NCBI GenBank assembly: GCA_937926975.1
Contig: CALBCJ010000032.1
Span: 2,355 to 66,354, forward strand
DNA length: 64,000 nt
Source of the DNA: an uncultured Propionibacteriaceae bacterium
Lineage (GTDB): Bacteria > Actinomycetota > Actinomycetes > Propionibacteriales > Propionibacteriaceae
Direction: 5' to 3'
Shown here: one piece after another, positions 20,300 through 35,711 of the stretch
Numbering within the stretch: position 1 is the first letter of the stretch
Layout: each line of letters opens with the position of its first letter
Notes under the pieces: generated by a model
Told to the model about the DNA's origin: nothing
Database searches by the model: none
The model's input: only the letters and a program-made list of their open reading frames with translations
Program-made: the position numbers and the translations under genes

Positions 20300-24861
<4,562 letters not shown>

Positions 24862-25363: not shown

Positions 25364-26632
25364 GTGACCACCGTTCTCGTTCTTGGTTCTGGCGGGCGTG
25401 AGCACGCCCTGGCCCGGGCTCTCGCGGCCGACCCCGCTGTCACCGCCGTCCACGTTGCCCCCGGCAACCCCGGGTCGTGGCGGGTCGCGACCCGCCACGA
25501 CGTCGACCTGCTCGACCCGGCGGCGGTGGCCGGGCTGGCGCGCGAGACCGGCGCCGACCTGGTGGTCATCGGGCCTGAGGCGCCGCTGGTTGCTGGGGTC
25601 GCCGACGCGGTCCGGGCCGCCGGGACCGCCTGCTACGGCGCCTCTGCCGCGGCGGCCCGGCTGGAGGGGTCGAAGCAGTTCGCCAAGGAGGTCATGGCTG
25701 CCGCCGGGGTCCCGACCGCCGGCTGGCGCTGGTGCACCAGTCCTGAGCAGGTCGCCGCCGCGCTTGACGACTTCGGTGCCCCGTACGTGGTCAAGGCCGA
25801 CGGGCTGATGGCCGGCAAGGGCGTCGTCGTGACCGGCGACCGGCAGGCCGCCCTCGACCACGCCGCCGCCTGCGGCGAGGTGGTCGTCGAGGAGTACCTG
25901 GACGGGCCCGAGGTGTCGCTGTTCGTGGTGACCGACTCGGTCACCGCGGTGCCGCTGCTGCCGGCCCAGGACTTCAAGCGGGTCGGCGACGGCGACACGG
26001 GTGCGAACACCGGCGGGATGGGGGCGTACGCGCCGCTGCCCTGGGCACCGGCCGGGCTCACCGACGCGGTCCTGGAGCAGGTTGTCCACCCGACCCTGGC
26101 CGAGATGCGCCGCCGCGGCACCCCGTTTGCGGGGCTGCTGTACTGCGGCCTGGCGCTGACCTCCCGGGGGCTGCGGGTGGTGGAGTTCAACGCCCGCTTC
26201 GGCGACCCCGAGACCCAGGCCGTGCTGGCACTGCTGGAGTCGAGCCTGTACGAGCTGCTGCTCGGCGCCGCCACCGGCACCCTGGCCGCTCTCGACCCGC
26301 CCCGCTGGCGCCCGGGGGCTGCGGTGACGGTCGTCGCCGCCGCCGAGGGCTACCCGGGCCGGCCCCGTACGGGGGGAGTGATCAGCGGGCCTGGGCTAGA
26401 GCAGGACGACGCCCAGGGCCACCTGATCCACGCCGGCACTGCGCTCGACGGCGACCGGCTGGTCGCAGCCGCAGGGCGGGTCCTGGCCGCCGTCGGTCTC
26501 GCCGACGACCTGGCCGGGGCCAGGAACAACGCGTACCGGGTACTCGAGCAGACCGACTTCCCGACGGGCTTCTGGCGCACCGACATCGCCGCCCGGGCAG
26601 CCGCTGGTCAGATCGCCACCCCGACCCTGTGA
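25364..26632 (+). CDS. purD: phosphoribosylamine-glycine ligase
   Basis: VLVLGSGGREHALA start and ATP-grasp blocks EEYLDGPEVS and NARFGDPETQ. Confidence 0.95.
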   Translation: MTTVLVLGSGGREHALARALAADPAVTAVHVAPGNPGSWRVATRHDVDLLDPAAVAGLARETGADLVVIGPEAPLVAGVADAVRAAGTACYGASAAAARLEGSKQFAKEVMAAAGVPTAGWRWCTSPEQVAAALDDFGAPYVVKADGLMAGKGVVVTGDRQAALDHAAACGEVVVEEYLDGPEVSLFVVTDSVTAVPLLPAQDFKRVGDGDTGANTGGMGAYAPLPWAPAGLTDAVLEQVVHPTLAEMRRRGTPFAGLLYCGLALTSRGLRVVEFNARFGDPETQAVLALLESSLYELLLGAATGTLAALDPPRWRPGAAVTVVAAAEGYPGRPRTGGVISGPGLEQDDAQGHLIHAGTALDGDRLVAAAGRVLAAVGLADDLAGARNNAYRVLEQTDFPTGFWRTDIAARAAAGQIATPTL

Positions 26633-26767: not shown

Positions 26768-28201
26768 ATGACCATTCCCAACGTGCTGGCGGCCCGGTAC
26801 GCCTCACCCGAGATGCGGACCCTGTGGTCGCCCGAGCAGAAGGTGGTCGACGAGCGCCGGCTCTGGCTGGCGGTGCTGGAGGCCCAGCGTGACCTGGGGG
26901 TGGACTTCGGCGGTGACGACCCCGACCAGGTCCTGGCCGACTACCGGCGGGTGCTGGAGCAGGTTGACCTGGACTCGATCACGGCCCGGGAGCGCGTCAC
27001 CCGCCACGACGTCAAGGCCCGGATCGAGGAGTTCAACGCCCTCGCCGGGCACGAGCACGTCCACAAGGGGATGACCTCGCGGGACCTCACCGAGAACGTC
27101 GAGCAGGCCCAGATGCTGGGCTCGCTGCGGCTGGTCCGGGAGCGGGTGGTGACGGCCCTGGTGGGGCTGAGCCGGCTCGCGGTCCAGTACGTGGCGCAGC
27201 CGGTCGTCGGCCGCTCCCACAACGTGGCCGCCCAGGTCACCACCCTCGGCAAGCGGTTCGCGACGGTTGCCGACGAGCTGCTGATCGCGTACCAGCGTCT
27301 CGACGAGCTGATCGCCCGGTACCCGGTGCGCGGCATCAAGGGGCCGGTCGGCACCAGCCAGGACATGCTCGACCTGCTCGGCGGTGACACCTCCCGGCTC
27401 GCCGAGCTGGAGCGGCGGGTAGCGGCGCACCTCGGCTTCGAGCAGGTGCTGACCTCGACCGGGCAGGTGTACCCCCGCTCGCTGGACCTGGACGCGGTCA
27501 CCGCCCTGGCCCAGGCTGCCGCCGCCCCGTCGAACCTCGCCACCTCGATCCGCCTGATGGCGGGCGCCGAGCTCGTCACTGAAGGCTTCCGGCCTGGCCA
27601 GGTGGGGTCGTCGGCGATGCCGCACAAGATGAACACCCGGTCCTGCGAGCGGGTGAACGGCCTGGCGGTGGTGCTGCGGGGGTACGTGTCGATGGTCGGC
27701 GAGCTGGCTGGTGACCAGTGGAACGAGGGCGACGTGTCGTGCTCGGTGGTGCGGCGGGTGGCACTGCCGGACGCCTGCTTCGCGGTCGACGGGCTGTACC
27801 AGACCTTCCTCACCGTGCTCGCCGACTTCGGGGCCTTCCCGGCGGTGATCGAGGCCGAGCTGGCCCGCTACCTGCCGTTCCTCACCACGACCAAGGTGCT
27901 GATGGCGGCCGTACGGGCGGGGACCGGCCGGGAGGTCGCGCACGAGGCGATCAAGGAGCACGCGGTGGCGGTGGCGCTGGCGGTGCGGGAGTCTGGGGCC
28001 AGCGGCAACGACCTGTACCGGCGGCTGGCGGCCGACTCCAGGCTCGGGCTCAGCCAGGCCGAGCTGGAGGCGGTGGCGCAGGCGCCGCTGGAGCTGACCG
28101 GGGCTGCCGCGCAGCAGGTGCGTCAGGTCTGCGACCGGGTGGAGGAGATCGCCCGAGCCTACCCGCAGGCCGCCGCGTACCAGCCGGGGCAGACTCTCTA
28201 A
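26768..28201 (+). CDS. purB: adenylosuccinate lyase
   Basis: NVLAARYASPEM start and the fumarate-lyase signature SSAMPHKMNTRSCE. Confidence 0.95.
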   Translation: MTIPNVLAARYASPEMRTLWSPEQKVVDERRLWLAVLEAQRDLGVDFGGDDPDQVLADYRRVLEQVDLDSITARERVTRHDVKARIEEFNALAGHEHVHKGMTSRDLTENVEQAQMLGSLRLVRERVVTALVGLSRLAVQYVAQPVVGRSHNVAAQVTTLGKRFATVADELLIAYQRLDELIARYPVRGIKGPVGTSQDMLDLLGGDTSRLAELERRVAAHLGFEQVLTSTGQVYPRSLDLDAVTALAQAAAAPSNLATSIRLMAGAELVTEGFRPGQVGSSAMPHKMNTRSCERVNGLAVVLRGYVSMVGELAGDQWNEGDVSCSVVRRVALPDACFAVDGLYQTFLTVLADFGAFPAVIEAELARYLPFLTTTKVLMAAVRAGTGREVAHEAIKEHAVAVALAVRESGASGNDLYRRLAADSRLGLSQAELEAVAQAPLELTGAAAQQVRQVCDRVEEIARAYPQAAAYQPGQTL

Positions 28202-28363: not shown

Positions 28364-28990
28364 ATGCCTGTCGGTCGTTACCTGGCCACAGCGGTCGCCC
28401 TGGCCGCGCTGTCTGGCTGCAGCCTGCTGGCCGAGGCGGGGATCGAGATCGAGACTCCCGACTTCCTGCTGACCCAGCAGGTCCGGACCCGGGCCGGCTC
28501 CCAGCCGCAGCTGGCCGGCCTGCCGATGCCCGGCTGGGCCGCCATCGGCCCTCACCCGGCCGACAGCGCCGAGCCCGGCTCGGGCGCCGTGCAGCGGTAC
28601 ACGGTCAGCGACGCGTCCTGCGTGGTCGAGACCCGTACCGTGGTTGCGACCAGCACCTGGGGACGCGGTGACGACCGGTACCTGAGTGACCAGCTGGTGA
28701 AGCGCTTCGTCGCCGCCCACACCCAGGGCACCCCGATGGCTGGGATCGAGAAGAGCCTCAAGATCAGCGAGGTCACCCTGAGGGGCGACCGGGGAGCGGT
28801 CTCAGTCCGCGAGGGGGCCGCCAAGATCACCGGGTACGAGCAGCGCGTGGTGGCCCGGGTCGCGGAGACCAGCGGCCAGGCGATCCTGATCTCCTACACC
28901 TGCCAGGGCCCGGTTGACTACGCCAAGTGGACCGCCCTGAAGGACGCCACCACCGTGGTCGGCTTCCTGCCGGAGTCCTTCGCTGACTGA
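28364..28990 (+). CDS. hypothetical lipoprotein
   Basis: Lipobox LAALSGC near the N-terminus. No family recognised. Confidence 0.6.
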   Translation: MPVGRYLATAVALAALSGCSLLAEAGIEIETPDFLLTQQVRTRAGSQPQLAGLPMPGWAAIGPHPADSAEPGSGAVQRYTVSDASCVVETRTVVATSTWGRGDDRYLSDQLVKRFVAAHTQGTPMAGIEKSLKISEVTLRGDRGAVSVREGAAKITGYEQRVVARVAETSGQAILISYTCQGPVDYAKWTALKDATTVVGFLPESFAD

Positions 28991-29119
28991 CCCGTACGGT
29001 CAGGCCCGCCGGTCGACCATCACGGCGCCGGCTACGACGAGCGGCAGAACCCGCGCTCGGCGATAGCGTGGGCAGCATGAGAGAGCTGGCGGAGGGCCAG
29101 TCGTGCTGAACCGGGTGTC

Positions 29120-29491
29120 ATGGCGGGTGCAGTCGACAGTGCTGTCTGGGGGCAGATCACCCAGGCGCTGGGAACGGATCCGACCTCCTGCCGCGGCAAG
29201 GGGCGACTCGTGAGCAGTCGACGACCTGGTGGGCCAGTCCACGGGCACACGACCCGGGTTCGACGGGAGGCGTCCCACGACATCGATTGGCGGCTGCTCG
29301 ACTCGCCAGTACTGCGCAACGTGGACCAGGTTCGGGCCCTGGACCCAGCGGCACGGGTGGACCTCGTCTGCATGGCCTGTGGGGCGGAGACTGGGTCGAT
29401 GGTCCAGATCGAGGCGAGCGTTCTCGCTGCGCTCGGCAACGCCGGCTGCGGGATCCTCCTCGACATCTATGACAGTGATGATGAGGACTGA
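29120..29491 (+). CDS. hypothetical protein with acidic tail (weak call)
   Basis: Only frame here without off-frame-like Arg/Pro/Ser bias. Third-position GC is about 77% by my count, which appears lower than the neighbouring genes. No homolog recognised. Confidence 0.3.
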   Translation: MAGAVDSAVWGQITQALGTDPTSCRGKGRLVSSRRPGGPVHGHTTRVRREASHDIDWRLLDSPVLRNVDQVRALDPAARVDLVCMACGAETGSMVQIEASVLAALGNAGCGILLDIYDSDDED

Positions 29492-29686
29492 CCTGCGGGA
29501 CTCTCCAGACAGAGACCGAGGGTTCCGGGATGTGCAGCATTCCCCAACGGATGTCTACGGGGGAGTCCCAGCAGCCTCGTGATGGCCTGAGTCTGGAGCG
29601 AGAAGGTCGTCCGGCTGGAGGGCCACGAGATCTTCGAGGGCTTCCCCGCGACACCGGAGCAAAGAACCTCTGACCAGGCAGAACGC

Positions 29687-30946
29687 TCATCGCAGTCGAG
29701 CGGGTCCCGGTCTGGTCCGGTCCTCTCGGGCCGGGCCGTCGGCGCTGACCAGGACCGGGATTCCGGTCGCCGCCAGGGCGTCGAGTGCAGAGCCGGTGAC
29801 CGGGCGGGGCCGGGCCCGCCGTACCTGATCGGTGAGCTGCGACCGGGCCTCCAGGTCGTCTGGGTCGCTGACCGGGTGCCAGTCGCCGGAGTCGACCACC
29901 GGCAGGTCGACATCGGCGTGGGTGACCGCCAGCCAGTCCGGGCGGGCGGCGCGGACCGCGTACCGCAGCATCCCCAGGTCCAGCCTGCCGAGCCGGAAAG
30001 CACCCTGGAACTCGCCCTCGCCGTTGTGGCGCTCGCCCACGTCCAGCGCTGAGTCCTCCGACGGGAACGGCCCGGCGCCGTGGCGGCTGTGCAGCGTACG
30101 GGCCACCCCGACCACCTGCGCCGGCTCGTCGGTGACCCGGGCCAGGAGCTCGCGGGCCGGGCCGGGCAGGGTCGTGGACCAGGTGGTGTGCGGGTGGAAG
30201 CCGACCCGCTCATCCAGCAGCGCCCCCTGGGCTCCCTCGAAGACCACCTCCCCGCGGCCCACCCAGTCCGCGAGCGGGTCGCCGACCTCGACCGTACGGC
30301 CGAAGTCCAGCAGCAGCCCCGCCATCTCGGCCACGCTCGGTACGTCCGTCGTGACCGGGGCGTAGAAGCGGACCAGGTCGTCGAGGCGGGAGACCAGCCG
30401 GCGGCGGTTCTGGGTGTCCACGGCCCGGGGCGCCACCCCGACCGCGTCGGAGGGGCAGCGGGTGTCCCCGTACGACTGGCCAGCTCGCAGCCCCCGGGCC
30501 GTGGCGCCGGCATAGAAGACGGTCTCGCCGATCCCGAGCCCGGTTGACCCGTGCCGGGCGTCACCACGGGCCCGCTCCCGGGCCTGGTTGGCCGCCACGT
30601 GGACCGGGGTCACCAGCAGCGCCGCCGGGTCGACACTCACCGTCGCCAGCGGGTTCGCCACCCCCAGCCGCTCCAGCTGGACCGCCTCAGCAGCCAGCAG
30701 CTCGGCGTCGAGCAGGTGGTGGCGCGACAGGTGGGTCGGGACCCCGGCCAGAGTGCCCGAGCCGAGCTGGCGAAAGGTGTGGTGCCGACCGGCGGCGACC
30801 ACGTTGTGGGCGGCCTGGGCGCCACCGTTGAACCGGACCACACCGGCCACGCCACGACCGGTGCGACCGCCGACCGAGCACAGCCAGTCGACGGTCGCCC
30901 CCTTGCCCTCGTCACCGAAGCCGAGGCCGACCACGATCGTGTGCAC
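29687..30946 (-). CDS. divergent adenylosuccinate-synthetase-fold protein (PurA paralog, altered substrate motifs)
   Basis: GFGDEGKGA P-loop, AAHNV, GLGIGET, FEGAQGALLD and HGAGPFPSE are retained. The TTGRPRR loop is replaced by GAFRLGR and TKLD by THAD. GTG start lies 6 nt after the vWA stop. Confidence 0.8.
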   Translation of the reverse strand: MHTIVVGLGFGDEGKGATVDWLCSVGGRTGRGVAGVVRFNGGAQAAHNVVAAGRHHTFRQLGSGTLAGVPTHLSRHHLLDAELLAAEAVQLERLGVANPLATVSVDPAALLVTPVHVAANQARERARGDARHGSTGLGIGETVFYAGATARGLRAGQSYGDTRCPSDAVGVAPRAVDTQNRRRLVSRLDDLVRFYAPVTTDVPSVAEMAGLLLDFGRTVEVGDPLADWVGRGEVVFEGAQGALLDERVGFHPHTTWSTTLPGPARELLARVTDEPAQVVGVARTLHSRHGAGPFPSEDSALDVGERHNGEGEFQGAFRLGRLDLGMLRYAVRAARPDWLAVTHADVDLPVVDSGDWHPVSDPDDLEARSQLTDQVRRARPRPVTGSALDALAATGIPVLVSADGPAREDRTRPGPARLR

Positions 30947-30952
30947 TGCTGG

Positions 30953-31870
30953 CTACCAGGGGCGGGTGAGGTCGCGCCCCATGGCCCGGTGGACCACCGC
31001 CGCCGTCCCCGAGACCGACTCGACATCGTCCAGGGCCGCCGACAGGTCGATGGTCTGCTCCTCGACCCCGATCGTCACCGCGATCAGCTCGCTCACCGCC
31101 GACGGGTCCTCCAGCCGCAGGAACCGCTGGCCCAGCAGCGAGCGCCAGTGCTGGTCGATGTCCCGGTCGTTCCAGTGCGCGGTCATCCGGGGCAGGATCA
31201 TGTAGACGTTCCAGTGCTGCTGCAGGTCGATGTACAGCTGGGTGACGTCCACGTCCTCCACGGTCTCGACTCCCAGCACCTCCCGCAGGTGGCGGGCCTT
31301 CAGCACCGGCTTGTTCAGCTCGTCACCGATGATGAACAGGTACCCCTTGCGGTGGTGCCTCTCGATGGCGTCGGCGAGGACCCGGTTCGCGATGAACCAC
31401 GCGGCCAGCTCGTACGACTCGGACTTCTGGCCGCCACCACCGCCCTCCAGGAAGATCTGCCGCAGCTGCTCGTCCATCCGGTTGTCGGACTCGAACTGCC
31501 CGACCTGCAGCGGCACCCGGTCGCAGTCGGCGTCGCCGATCGCCCCGAACATCAGCTGCGGGTCACTGACGTAGCGCCCCTGGAGCAGCAGCTCTAGCAG
31601 GGTCGGCAGCCGCTGCTGAAGCAGCCGCGGCACCCGCTGCATCGACCCGGTCACGTCGAAGAGCACCGCGATCGGCGTGGAGTACGGGTGCTCGGCGCTG
31701 TCGCGAGCCTCCCGTACGGCACCGAACGGCTCTAGCGCCGGCGCCGCCCGCCACTGGCTGGGGTTCTGCCGCTGGGTCTGCGCGTTGTAGGCGAACCCGT
31801 CGATCCCTCGCGCCCGCCGGTACGCCTCGGCCGCCTCGTAGCCGCTGGTGCTCCACCTGCCCTGTCCCAT
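30953..31870 (-). CDS. von Willebrand factor A (vWA) domain protein
   Basis: MIDAS-like DVTGSM, followed by GAIGD and LFIIGDE strands. AGGAGG RBS lies 7 nt before the ATG at 31870. Confidence 0.75.
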   Translation of the reverse strand: MGQGRWSTSGYEAAEAYRRARGIDGFAYNAQTQRQNPSQWRAAPALEPFGAVREARDSAEHPYSTPIAVLFDVTGSMQRVPRLLQQRLPTLLELLLQGRYVSDPQLMFGAIGDADCDRVPLQVGQFESDNRMDEQLRQIFLEGGGGGQKSESYELAAWFIANRVLADAIERHHRKGYLFIIGDELNKPVLKARHLREVLGVETVEDVDVTQLYIDLQQHWNVYMILPRMTAHWNDRDIDQHWRSLLGQRFLRLEDPSAVSELIAVTIGVEEQTIDLSAALDDVESVSGTAAVVHRAMGRDLTRPW

Positions 31871-31895: not shown

Positions 31896-31926
31896 TATGT
31901 AGTACATAACACTAGTAATGATTACT
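31896..31926. promoter_or_regulatory. two palindromes in AT-rich divergent promoter region
   Basis: TATGTAGTACATA (31896-31908) and AGTAATGATTACT (31914-31926), in the only strongly AT-rich stretch of this region. Confidence 0.4.
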
Positions 31927-32601
31927 CAAGAGGGGTCGGAGGTCCGAGAGGTGATACGAGCCATGACGGCGCAGGCCCGCGCTGAGGCGGCGGATAGGGT
32001 GCCGGGCGTGGACTCCCTGGTATCGGTCGACGTGCTGGCGGTTCGACTGGCCGACGGCGAGGTCCGGTTCGCGGCCGTACGGCGCCAGACCGAGCCCTTC
32101 GCTGGGGAGTGGGCGCTGCCGGGGGTGCTGCTGCTGGAGGGGGAGCGGCTGATAGAGGCCGGGCAGCGGGCCCTGCGCGACAAGGCCGGCCTGGTGGCGA
32201 CTGAGCTGGGGCAGCTGATCGTCTTCGACGAGCCGCTGCGCGACCCGCGCGGCGCCACCCTCTCAGCAGCCATGTGGGCAGTGCCGACCGGCGACCCGGC
32301 CGGGGTGGAGTGGCGCCCGGTCGACGACCCCGCAGACCTGGCCTTCGACCACCACACCATCGTCACCAGCTGCCGCCCGATCCTCGCCCGGATGCTGTGG
32401 AACGACTTCTGCTTCACAAAGTCCCTGATGGGGGTGGAGTTCAGTGTGGGAGACGCGATTGGGGCCACCGTCTCGCTGACGGGAGCGATGCCCGACCGGG
32501 GCAACCTCAACAAGAAGCTCGCCTCGCTGCCCGGCCTCGAGCGCGCCGGGTACGGAACGGGGCGCGGCCGCCCCTCCCGCTGGCGCTGGGCGGACGGCTG
32601 A
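31918..32601 (+). CDS. NrtR-like regulator: non-catalytic Nudix domain fused to C-terminal winged helix
   Basis: Nudix fold with a degenerate box (GERLIEAGQRALRDKAG, catalytic Glu pair lost). C-terminal FDHHTIV...NLNKKL...GRGRPSRW resembles the NrtR wHTH. The true start may be the ATG at 31966. Confidence 0.75.
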   Translation: MITQEGSEVREVIRAMTAQARAEAADRVPGVDSLVSVDVLAVRLADGEVRFAAVRRQTEPFAGEWALPGVLLLEGERLIEAGQRALRDKAGLVATELGQLIVFDEPLRDPRGATLSAAMWAVPTGDPAGVEWRPVDDPADLAFDHHTIVTSCRPILARMLWNDFCFTKSLMGVEFSVGDAIGATVSLTGAMPDRGNLNKKLASLPGLERAGYGTGRGRPSRWRWADG

Positions 32602-32694: not shown

Positions 32695-35043
32695 GTGCCC
32701 ACGTCACACCTTGACCTGCCCCTCGCCCACGCCGGGAAGGTGCGCGAGCTGTACGCGACCGACCGCGACGACCAGCTCCTGCTGGTGGCGACCGACAGCA
32801 TCTCGGCCTTCGACCGGGTGCTGCCGACACCGGTCCCCGACAAGGGGGCGGTGCTCACCCAGCTCAGCACCTCGTGGCTGGGCCAGCTCGCCGACGTCGT
32901 ACCGAACCACCTCGTCAGCTCGCAGGTGCCACCACCTGTGGCCGGACGGGCGGTGGTCGTGGAGCGCCTGGAGATGGTCCCGGTGGAGTGCGTGGTCCGC
33001 GGCTACCTGGCGGGGTCCGCCTGGAAGGAGTACCGCGAGACCGGGCTGGTCGCCGGGATGGAGCTGCCGCGCCAGCTGCTGCAGGGCGAGCGGCTGGAGC
33101 GGCCGCTGTTCACCCCCGCCCGCAAGGCGCCGCAGGGAGAGCACGACGAGAGCATCACGTACGCCCAGCTGGCGCACAGCGTCGGGCCGGACCTGGCCCG
33201 CCAGCTCTGGCTGGCCTCCATGAAGCTGTACGTCCGGGCCGAGCGGATCGCCCGCTCGCGGGGCCTGATCCTGGTGGACACCAAGTTCGAGTTCGGCCGT
33301 CGCGCCGACGGCACCCTGGTGCTGGCCGACGAGGTGCTGACGCCGGACTCGTCGCGGTACTGGTCCGTGGCCGACTACCGGCCCGGGCAGGAGATGCCCG
33401 CCCTCGACAAGCAGCTGCTTCGGGACTGGCTGGCGACCGAGTCGGGATGGGACCCCGACAGCGGGCAGCCGGCCCCCGAGCTGCCGGCGGCGCTGGTGGC
33501 GGCGCTGCGCGACCGCTACACCGACCTCTTCCGGCGCCTCACCGGGTACGACATGACCCCGGCCGAGCCGTGGGTAGCACGGGCCGCCGCAGGGCAGGCA
33601 GCGTCAGCAGCGCCACCGGCTGGCGCCAGTGCTGTCTCGGGCCAGCCGGGAGACGACCTGGCTGAGAGCGCGACCCCCGCCCCGGAGGCTCAAGGCGCCG
33701 GCGCCCACCTGGACCCGGCCCAGGGCGAGTTCGCGTCCGGGCCCGGCACCCAGGGCGGGCTCGTCCCTCCAGCCCCCGACCCGGCGCTGAGCGGTGCTGG
33801 CGCCCCGGACGAGACGCCCGGTGGACCGGGTGCTGGTGCGGTCGGACCGCCTGTCGACCCGACCCTCGCGGACGAGCCGGCGACCGGCGGGCCGGAGCCA
33901 GCCACAAAGAGCGAGGCAGGCCCGCTGACCGGTGGTGCCGAGATCGAGCAGGCGCACGCGGAGGCCCGTGCGGCCGCCGACCTGCTGGACAACGACCTGA
34001 CGGTGGGGCTGGGAGGCGGCGCCGCTGCCGGCCCAGGTGCCGAGACGCTGCCGGCGCCGGCCGCCGGCGAGGCCATCAGCCAGGACCAGCTCGTCCCAGA
34101 CCAGGTCGCAGGGACAGGCCAGGTAGCCCAGCAGGGCCCGGAGGCTGCCGGTGAGCCCCTGGGTGGACCCGAGGTCGGCGAGCCGGCCGCGTACGAGACG
34201 GCAGACGGCCCCCTGGAGGCTGTGACTCAGGAGGTGGTGAGAGCAGAGGGCCTGGAAGGGCTCATCGACGGTGAGCCCGCGGCGGCTGAGCCGGAGCCCG
34301 GGCCGGCCGCTGGCGCCGCCGAGCTGGAAGGCAGCCCAGGCCAGGGTGTGCCGACGAGTGGTGCCGCGGTCGCCGCGCCACCACCTGACGCCGACCTGGT
34401 GGCGGGCGCCGGGGCAGACGAGGACGCCGCGTACAGGGCCGCTGCGCTCCCGCCCGCCGAGGGCCTGGCGCCAACCGGTGAGGTCCTGCCCGTCGCGGCT
34501 GAGGCCCCAGCCACCGCGGAGGGTGCAGGCGAGCTGCCGGGAGCGGCCGGGGTGCCGGTGGTCGGGCCGGGAGCGGCCGAGGAGCCGGCGGGTGCTGAAG
34601 CGGCGGCTGGAGCGGACGTGGCTGAGGCTGCTGGGGCGGACCATCCGTACCAGGTGGCGGCCGGACCGGCGGGTGCTGAGGGCTCGGTGGCAGACGAGAC
34701 CAGGACGGGTCCGGCCGAGCCGGACGCCCGCTACGACCACCGCGCCACGCAGGAGGCGGGGGTCGCCCACGACAGCAGCGGACCGACCACGACCCTCGTG
34801 GTCGAGGTGATGCCGAAGCCCGAGATCCTCGACCCGCAGGGCAAGGCCGTCACCGGGGCCCTGCGCCGGCTGGGGTTCGGCGGGCTGTCGGTCCGGCAGG
34901 GCAAGCGCTTCGAGGTCGTGGTCGACGGCGAGCTGAGCGACGACCTTCTCCAGCAGGTACGGCAGGCGGCTGAGACCCTGCTCGCGAACACCGTGATCGA
35001 GGACTTCAGGGTCGTCGTGCCCGAGGAGCAGGGGCAGGCATGA
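32695..35043 (+). CDS. purC: SAICAR synthase fused in frame to PurS through a roughly 400-aa low-complexity linker
   Basis: aa 1-295 are PurC ([28 protein letters not shown]). aa 701-782 are PurS ([17 protein letters not shown]). There is no in-frame stop between them. Confidence 0.8.
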
Positions 35044-35711
35044 AGGTCGGGGTCGTCACCTTCCCCGGGTCCCTCGACGACCAGGACGCGCGGCGCGCGG
35101 TCCGGCTGACGGGGGCCGAGGCGGTGCCGCTGTGGCACGCCTCCGACTCTCTGCACGGGGTGGACGCCGTGATCCTGCCGGGCGGCTTCACGTACGGGGA
35201 CTACCTGCGCTGCGGCGCGATCGCCCGGTTTGCCCCGGTGATGACCGCGGTGGTCGAGGCCGCCGAGCAGGGACTGCCGGTGCTGGGGATCTGCAACGGC
35301 TTCCAGGTGCTCTGCGAGGCCCACCTGCTGCCGGGGGCGCTGACCCGCAACGTGGGGCGGACCTTCATCTGCCGCGAGCAGCGGCTGCGGGTCGAGACCC
35401 GCGACACGGTCTGGACCAACCAGTTCGGCCGGGGCGAGGAGATCACCATCGTCCTGAAGAACGGCGAGGGCTCCTACCAGGCCTCCGCCGAGACCCTGCG
35501 CCAGCTGGAGGAGCAGGACCAGGTGGTCATCCGCTACCTGGGCAACCCGAACGGCTCCGCCCACGACATCGCCGGCATCACGAATGCCCGGGGCAATGTC
35601 GTCGGGCTGATGCCGCACCCGGAGCACAGCATTGAGGAGCTGACCGGGCCAAGCCTCGACGGGCGGCGCTTCTTCGAGTCCCTGTACGCCTTCCTCGCGG
35701 TCGCTCGCTAA
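35040..35711 (+). CDS. purQ: phosphoribosylformylglycinamidine synthase, glutaminase subunit
   Basis: GICNGFQ catalytic Cys and MPHPEH motif. ATGA overlap with the purS stop. Confidence 0.95.

Follow-up and report, generated by a model that had tools for sequence, protein, structure and literature searches.

A distinct clade of PurA-fold proteins, shared by actinobacteria and large phages and paired with a predicted von Willebrand factor A protein, keeps catalytic-core residues of adenylosuccinate synthetase and replaces its aspartate loop

The minus-strand open reading frame (ORF) at 29687..30946 of a 64,000-nucleotide stretch from an uncultured Propionibacteriaceae bacterium (GenBank assembly GCA_937926975.1, contig CALBCJ010000032.1, positions 2,355 to 66,354; this whole stretch is hereafter called the window) encodes a 419-residue paralog of the adenylosuccinate synthetase PurA. 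Judged from its sequences, the clade to which this protein belongs appears to form a further branch of the PurA family, the third beside PurA itself and the phage enzyme PurZ, and its members would be neither adenylosuccinate synthetases nor PurZ. There are strong grounds for regarding the clade as distinct and functional, with an activity other than adenylosuccinate synthesis that is exerted together with the von Willebrand factor A (vWA) protein encoded beside it. The gene, which starts with GTG and has a G+C content at third codon positions (GC3) of 0.90 in a window of ~70% G+C, is both intact and conserved, and other samples contain a copy that is 99% identical. It coexists with a canonical purA (23578..24861, plus strand), which is the real adenylosuccinate synthetase (EC 6.3.4.4) of this genome and serves here as the comparator.

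The similarity of the paralog to PurA is far beyond chance. BLASTP aligns it with the canonical PurA of the window at 30% identity (E = 2e-20), and it matches the Pfam profile PF00709 (Adenylsucc_synt) with E = 5.4e-50, over profile positions 1-328 of 416 only; the canonical protein matches the full profile at 585 bits. On the NCBIfam purA equivalog models the canonical PurA scores 607.9 bits (NF002223, cut-off 402) and 528.4 bits (TIGR00184, cut-off 395.55) and the paralog 129.6 and 104.5 bits, respectively. The AlphaFold2 (AF2) model of the paralog, with a predicted local distance difference test (pLDDT) score of 82, shows the complete PurA fold including the full C-terminal domain, and Foldseek matches it to full-length PurA structures with E = 1.9e-23 and a template modeling (TM) score of about 0.72, PurZ fitting less well. 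A homolog from Saccharothrix is 53% identical to the paralog, and a neighbor-joining tree groups all 161 paralogs collected for this work in a single clade, with PurA and PurZ both outside it. Identity with PurZ was considered and rejected: the PurZ model NF038379 gives the paralog 25.7 bits against a cut-off of 300, and the catalytic Asp that is replaced by Ser in PurZ (PMC12884076) is kept.

An ordinary second adenylosuccinate synthetase is what the public annotation of the paralog implies, and the location of the gene within the pur gene cluster could be read the same way. This isozyme reading is extremely improbable, given the distance between 129.6 bits and the 402-bit equivalog cut-off, the presence of canonical purA 5 kb away, the replacement of all five aspartate-binding residues described below, and the occurrence of the same clade in phages, where the gene lies just downstream of a vWA gene in 77 of 80 viral loci.

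In the Honzatko/Fromm structures of E. coli PurA, D13 serves as the base and H41 as the acid, Q224 contacts the purine base, and K16 also belongs to the catalytic core. The 5'-phosphate of inosine monophosphate (IMP) is contacted by N38, T129, T239 and R143', a loop comprising T300, T301, R303, R304 and R305 binds the carboxylates of aspartate, and guanine is recognized through an (S/T)KxD element, whose D333 reads N1 and N2, together with a C-terminal S-x-G-P. Titles of PDB entries for the K16Q, R143L and R303L mutants mark those residues as recognized active-site positions. The corresponding columns were examined (in E. coli numbering, used throughout) in an alignment of E. coli MG1655 PurA, the window PurA, PurZ of phage phiVC8 and the 161 paralogs, 83 of them bacterial and 78 viral; statements about every sequence refer to those with a residue at the column, one bacterial and one viral sequence being gapped at D13/K16.

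The P-loop GDEGKG is shared with PurA, and the equivalents of D13, K16, H41, Q224 and T239 are unchanged in every aligned member of the clade; in the window protein the first four are D12, K15, H47 and Q240. It is thus very likely, as far as conservation can tell, that the chemistry at the purine O6 is retained. A preliminary description of this DNA had set seven motifs of the paralog (GDEGKGA, AQAAHN, STGLGIGETV, EGAQGALLD, HGAGPFP, GEFQGAFRLGRLD and VTHAD) against those of the canonical PurA and had proposed that the phosphotransfer core survives and the aspartate loop is lost; all seven pairs are present as quoted, with the paralog on the minus strand, and both proposals hold across the clade. 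T300 is replaced by an aromatic residue (Y, F or W), T301 by Q (159 of 161) and R304 by A, R303 is deleted in all members, and R305 has become F, W, L, I or M; the window protein, whose remodeled loop spans residues 311-320, reads F, Q, gap, A and F at these five positions. What stands in place of GxTTGRRRR is a motif of the clade's own, G-x-(Y/F/W)-Q-G-x-(F/W)-R, one residue shorter, and because this replacement loop is itself conserved, the change reads as remodeling and not as decay. Aspartate is therefore a very unlikely amine substrate, judging by these replacements.

Other substitutions surround the substrate sites. N38 is replaced by Q in 159 of the 161 sequences and V273 by H in all 161; mainly among bacterial members, T129 has become C or V, K18 A, S240 W and P135 E; R143 is not conserved (H, A, Y or G). 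Thus, among the four residues that contact the IMP 5'-phosphate, N38, T129 and R143 are altered and T239 alone is retained. The pattern differs from that of phiVC8 PurZ, which carries S at D13, N at D333 and F at K331, keeps N38, T129 and R143, and has been crystallized with ATP and dGMP; the clade keeps D13 and D333 and loses the aspartate loop and the 5'-phosphate contacts.

The phosphate donor calls for separate consideration, since the preliminary description held that the guanine-specificity motif was lost and that the donor, the amine or both had changed. In the alignment the aspartate contacts are replaced, which supports the part of that proposal concerning the amine; the part concerning the donor is the weaker half, and loss of the motif was overstated. 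Within the (S/T)KxD element K331 alone is changed, to H in bacterial and to H or C in viral members, while 159 of 161 sequences retain D333 (D345 in the window protein). The C-terminal element G416-P417-x-R419 is present in the window protein (VSADGPAR, residues 400-407) beyond the end of the Pfam match; G416 is kept in nearly all members, and P417 in 78 of 83 bacterial and 35 of 78 viral sequences. A switch to ATP or another nucleoside triphosphate, as in PurZ, could be read from the changes at K331, K18 (to Ala), T42 (to Asn) and S414 (variable: G, A or S), and from a Pfam match that stops short of the C-terminal guanine element. Against it are the retention of D333 and, in bacterial members, of the whole G416-P417-x-R419 element, the full C-terminal domain in the AF2 model, and the comparison with phiVC8 PurZ, whose ATP-containing crystals come from a protein with N at D333 and F at K331. 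A change of donor is accordingly unlikely; since D333 and the C-terminal Gly-Pro are kept, guanine recognition would be only partly changed and GTP is the most likely donor on this evidence.

The gene next to the paralog (30953..31870, minus strand) ends 6 nt before the paralog start and encodes a 305-residue protein from an ATG at 31870 that is preceded by AAGGAGG; the ORF delimited mechanically extends to a GTG at 31912. The protein has no significant match in Pfam, including the Pfam vWA models, or in NCBIfam, and a sequence profile search of the PDB was also empty; it does match phrog_2971 of PHROGs, a family to which no function is assigned, and there is a very weak DUF444 match over the strand carrying the metal ion-dependent adhesion site (MIDAS) (E = 0.21). 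Its AF2 model (pLDDT 85) is matched by Foldseek to the integrin beta-I and alphaM I domains with E about 5e-7 and probability 1.0, and a MIDAS-type motif, D72-V-T74-G-S76, is conserved; the modeled neighbor is thus a vWA fold with a MIDAS-like motif. The partner is more conserved than the enzyme, with 58% identity to its Saccharothrix homolog compared with 53%. Its N-terminus is Met-Gly, in the pattern M-G-(G/S)-(G/S)-x-(W/Y/F), in all 83 locus sequences and in 133 of 149 diverse representatives (50% clustering), the exceptions being mostly fragments or mis-called starts; AF2 predicts this segment to be a flexible tail ahead of a helix at residues 8-21. The family is large, with 1,635 clusters at 50% identity found at E <= 1e-10 in a library of 1.84 billion proteins. 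In one mycobacteriophage homolog (P0363; compare L004:4626-5648) an intein-like insert of ~255 residues, starting with Cys and ending with Ser-Ser-Asn-Cys, is inserted precisely within the conserved strand GY|xFIGDE, and inteins tend to occupy functionally critical sites.

Pairing of the two genes is nearly constant, a feature that sets the clade apart from PurA. A scan of a one-genome-per-species bacterial collection with two clade-specific peptide patterns gave at least 599 stretches confirmed as relatives, among them sequences from Nocardia, Rhodococcus, Pseudonocardiaceae, Actinomadura, Nocardioides and some Mycobacterium. Of the bacterial loci, 80 were kept, and 77 of these have the vWA gene immediately upstream in the same orientation; of the remaining three, two (L045, L071) are cut close to the PurA-like gene and one (L077) has too little upstream sequence. 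Among viruses, at least 309 contigs of IMG/VR encode the vWA protein, and of the best 80 of them, which span 25-70% G+C and are mostly 100-416 kb long, 77 have the PurA-like gene immediately after the vWA gene. Vibrio phage pv27 and Rhizobium phage RHph_TM30 have the pair as well, and ~200 cluster-C mycobacteriophages carry it as part of a trio (in Bixzunavirus I3, gp270, named 'kinase', gp271 and gp273).

The third gene of this trio encodes a protein with a J-domain (HPD motif) and a kinase-like domain. About half of the bacterial loci have it ahead of the vWA gene (e.g. L002:6023-7021, L004:3460-4590), and it lies just upstream in 57 of the 80 viral loci, a figure that rises to 70 of 80 by transitive clustering; a hidden Markov model of the protein finds no match in the window or in the related contig L088, and does find one in L089, the other related contig. 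Because the kinase-like domain lacks a conserved catalytic Lys or Asp, the protein probably acts as a pseudokinase scaffold for the recruitment of Hsp70. Apart from the trio itself, the 80 viral loci show no conserved gene in this neighborhood, and in particular no lyase and no amine-supplying enzyme; for this reason the cassette would comprise one evident enzyme and two proteins predicted to be non-enzymatic. It is a self-contained cassette common to actinobacteria and large phages.

With partners of this kind (a vWA fold, and a J-domain protein whose kinase-like domain has no conserved catalytic residues) the PurA fold could itself be a switch-like, GTP-binding module, acting with the vWA/MIDAS and J-domain proteins in the manner of vWA-ATPase pairs and carrying out no new purine chemistry. 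Such pairings of vWA proteins with P-loop NTPases are represented by MoxR-vWA and by YeaG/YeaH with DUF444, where a cytoplasmic vWA/MIDAS protein stands beside an NTPase and a kinase-like protein; there, in contrast to the PurA-fold enzyme of the cassette, the partner is an AAA+ ATPase, and no significant sequence relationship to the cassette was found. Alteration of both the substrate-phosphate and the aspartate sites would suit a non-catalytic module. However, D13, H41 and Q224, residues that serve chemistry only, are invariant over 161 very divergent sequences, and D13 is never lost in this clade even though a proven enzyme, PurZ, tolerates its loss. A module without catalysis is thus improbable.

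Divergent from the cassette, on the plus strand, is a gene for an NrtR-family-like regulator (31918..32601; true start probably the ATG at 31963) with a Nudix domain (PF00293) and weak NCBIfam matches to NtrR/NMNAT-Nudix models. The protein aligns over nearly its full length with Bacteroides AraR (5bs6) and over the Nudix domain alone with Shewanella NrtR (3gz5). In the Nudix box RALRDK stands in place of the REUxEE of catalytic enzymes, and the protein is predicted to combine a non-catalytic Nudix domain with a C-terminal winged helix, as in NrtR. A protein 45-54% identical to it is encoded immediately downstream of the PurA-like gene in most bacterial loci, including that of Saccharothrix (49%). 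The divergent promoter region, between the vWA start and the regulator, contains two 13-bp palindromes, both AT-rich and adjacent to each other (31896-31908, TATGTA-G-TACATA; 31914-31926, AGTAAT-G-ATTACT), a candidate operator in a genome of such high G+C content; in L088 the corresponding position holds a 26-bp near-palindrome that has GTAGTAC in common with it. Most actinobacterial loci carry a different, strongly conserved palindrome of 21-25 bp, GTTT(G/T)AGTC-N5-GACT(C/A)AAAC, directly at the start codon of the first cassette gene (L002:5990-6025 and ~40 others); in some Nocardia loci it is joined by a related palindrome (TTTTTGTC...GACAAAAA) ~45 bp further upstream. The degenerate Nudix box, predicted C-terminal DNA-binding domain and palindromes at the operon start would fit a member of the NrtR/AraR group, whose known members control NAD or arabinose genes, whereas this one would control the cassette.

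From these data we infer the following scheme for donor, catalysis, purine, amine and repression. The enzyme would bind GTP and a 6-oxopurine nucleotide and transfer the gamma-phosphate to O6 as in PurA, with the D13 equivalent as base and that of H41 as acid, assisted by the equivalents of K16 and Q224. The 6-phosphoryl intermediate would then be displaced by an amine other than aspartate, most likely the free alpha-amine that Gly2 of the vWA protein, encoded in the same transcript, would present once Met has been removed, giving a purine nucleotide joined through N6 directly to the N-terminus of the vWA protein. The NrtR-like protein would repress the operon through the palindromes of the promoter region and respond to a nucleotide-type ligand. 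Gly2 is favored as the acceptor because the cassette has one evident enzyme, its J-domain/kinase-like protein lacking conserved catalytic residues; because the partner N-terminus is invariant and predicted to be flexible; because the residues that hold the aspartate carboxylates are gone and replaced by aromatics and Gln; and because Cap9/CdnD offers a direct precedent. Even so, Gly2 as the acceptor is a tentative assignment. Equally tentative is the wider picture, in which the enzyme is a protein-modifying ligase that couples the C6 of a GTP-activated 6-oxopurine nucleotide to the alpha-amine of Gly2 of the vWA protein (a hitherto undescribed 'N-terminal purinylation', in which an entire nucleotide would be attached to a protein by way of its base), used by large phages together with an Hsp70-recruiting J-domain pseudokinase and domesticated by actinobacteria under an NrtR-like repressor.

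In that precedent, the QueC-like protein Cap9 uses Gly2 of its partner CdnD (N-terminus GGSGGSF) in place of ammonia, so that a nucleobase is conjugated to a protein N-terminus. The likeness of the scheme to Cap9/CdnD and to QatC/QatB, the QueC-family systems of protein deazaguanylation, is one of logic only: a purine-pathway enzyme, a small nucleophile replaced by the Gly2 alpha-amine of an operon partner, and a flexible N-terminus rich in Gly and Ser. The enzymes themselves differ, Cap9 and QatC having a QueC PP-loop ATPase fold and adenylating a carboxylate, whereas the paralog has a PurA fold and would phosphorylate O6. Theirs, moreover, are defense systems, and conjugation by the present cassette is hypothetical. 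Neither the paralog nor its vWA and Nudix neighbors match any PADLOC model of anti-phage defense.

The main rival to transfer onto a protein is synthesis of a small molecule, in which GTP-dependent activation of O6 is followed by attack of a free small amine, another amino acid or ammonia. The product, an adenine-type nucleotide with or without a substituent on N6, would serve as a metabolite or signal, and the vWA protein would be a regulator or scaffold. The retained catalytic core fits this reading as well, and an aspartate pocket rebuilt with aromatics and Gln would suit an amine that is smaller or carries less charge; a regulator of NrtR type hints at control through a nucleotide-like ligand, and PurZ shows that the fold can change its nucleotide substrate. 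The genomic contexts of the cassette point the same way. In the window and in the two related Propionibacteriales-like contigs (L088 and L089, from their gene maps) it stands directly downstream of purB, inside the pur cluster, and in Nocardia it is flanked by relA and, at its other end, by an ABC-F gene with secDF/apt; in Saccharothrix it adjoins PPK2. These contexts are purine-flavored and vary with lineage, and because they differ between lineages and phages carry the cassette without any of them, the position in the pur cluster is weak evidence of a metabolic role. Against a small-molecule product, no second enzyme, whether lyase or amine supplier, belongs to the cassette across the 80 viral loci, there is no glutaminase partner to supply ammonia, and the near-constant pairing with the vWA protein and its invariant N-terminal Gly are left unexplained. 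A small-molecule synthase is only slightly less likely than transfer to Gly2, and as tentative.

Several observations weigh against transfer to Gly2, or against parts of the scheme built on it. The residue roles on which the argument turns are those of the E. coli structural literature, and PDB entry titles are their sole corroboration here. The replacements of K18 by Ala, T42 by Asn and K331 by His, with S414 variable, could weaken or alter GTP binding, and because three of the four IMP 5'-phosphate contacts are altered, the purine substrate may be something other than plain IMP. No natural fusion of a vWA protein with a PurA-like protein was found (one long apparent 'fusion', P0253, was set aside because it looks like a frameshift read-through). 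The invariant Met-Gly could have another purpose, such as binding or stability, and the Gly2 proposal does not account for a role of the MIDAS site. As for regulation, the window lacks the palindrome GTTT(G/T)AGTC-N5-GACT(C/A)AAAC, its candidate operator differing from that of other actinobacteria, and the exact window palindrome ATGTANTACAT is present in no other locus compared.

The phage members of the clade have so far been treated under names belonging to other enzymes. PHROGs places the paralog in the generic family phrog_1211 ('2-aminooxy adenylosuccinate synthetase'); the canonical PurA matches this family too. The same product name is given in RefSeq/pharokka to every phage PF00709 protein, for example NC_067270.1 gp273 and OR413349.1 CDS0145. 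For this clade the name is likely to be misleading, because Asp13 is kept and the aspartate loop is absent. PurZ/PurZ0, the phage N6-succino-2-amino-2'-deoxyadenylate synthases, share with the clade membership in the PurA superfamily, carriage by phages and altered substrate use, and they are a precedent for retargeting of the fold; unlike what is proposed for the clade, they keep aspartate as a substrate, and they are short (~340 residues). A 2026 survey of phage PF00709 proteins placed ~147 of 481 in PurZ/PurZ0 and left the remainder as 'other PurA homologs', and in Z-genome phages PurZ is associated with the nucleotide-metabolism genes dutZ and dmtZ (PMC12884076), neither of which is among the genes conserved around the trio in the 80 viral loci. 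Full-text searches found no literature on the clade itself. Hundreds of its genes thus stand in public databases as 'adenylosuccinate synthetase' or '2-aminooxy adenylosuccinate synthetase', and the evidence says neither. The clade offers a concrete case of a purine-biosynthesis fold that has been retargeted a second time; its reaction, once known, would bring to light either a new nucleotide product or a novel type of protein modification, and would explain why a three-gene module is kept together by large phages of very different hosts.

The remainder of the surrounding region of the window is a core purine-biosynthesis cluster. Upstream of canonical purA is a gene for a 1022-residue 5'-nucleotidase-like protein (20300..23368, minus strand) with 5'-nucleotidase C-terminal and metallophosphoesterase domains, transcribed divergently from purA. 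Downstream of purA are purD (25364..26632) and purB, encoding adenylosuccinate lyase (26768..28201, plus strand; Lyase_1 and ADSL_C domains). Between a predicted lipoprotein gene (28364..28990) and the paralog stop codon, ~700 bp (28991..29686) contain no convincing ORF and have no Rfam match; the ORFs listed there are Arg/Pro-rich shadows, except for one at 29120..29491 (plus strand) that contains CxxC and ends in an acidic tail. An ORF of 177 codons that overlaps the paralog stop codon (29157..29690) was likewise rejected as a gene, being Arg/Pro-rich and without a family match. Rfam detected no riboswitch over 20-38 kb of the window.

On the far side of the regulator, purC and purS are joined in a single ORF of 782 residues (32695..35043, plus strand), followed by purQ (35040..35711). 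The purC and purS parts are linked by ~450 residues of low-complexity sequence rich in Ala, Pro, Glu and Gly, and an antisense ORF with high GC3 and no family match (33604..34770) overlaps this linker. The PurC-PurS fusion seems to be real in this lineage, because a 447-residue gene call on the related contig (L088:10871-12214) carries both the SAICAR_synt and the PurS domains.

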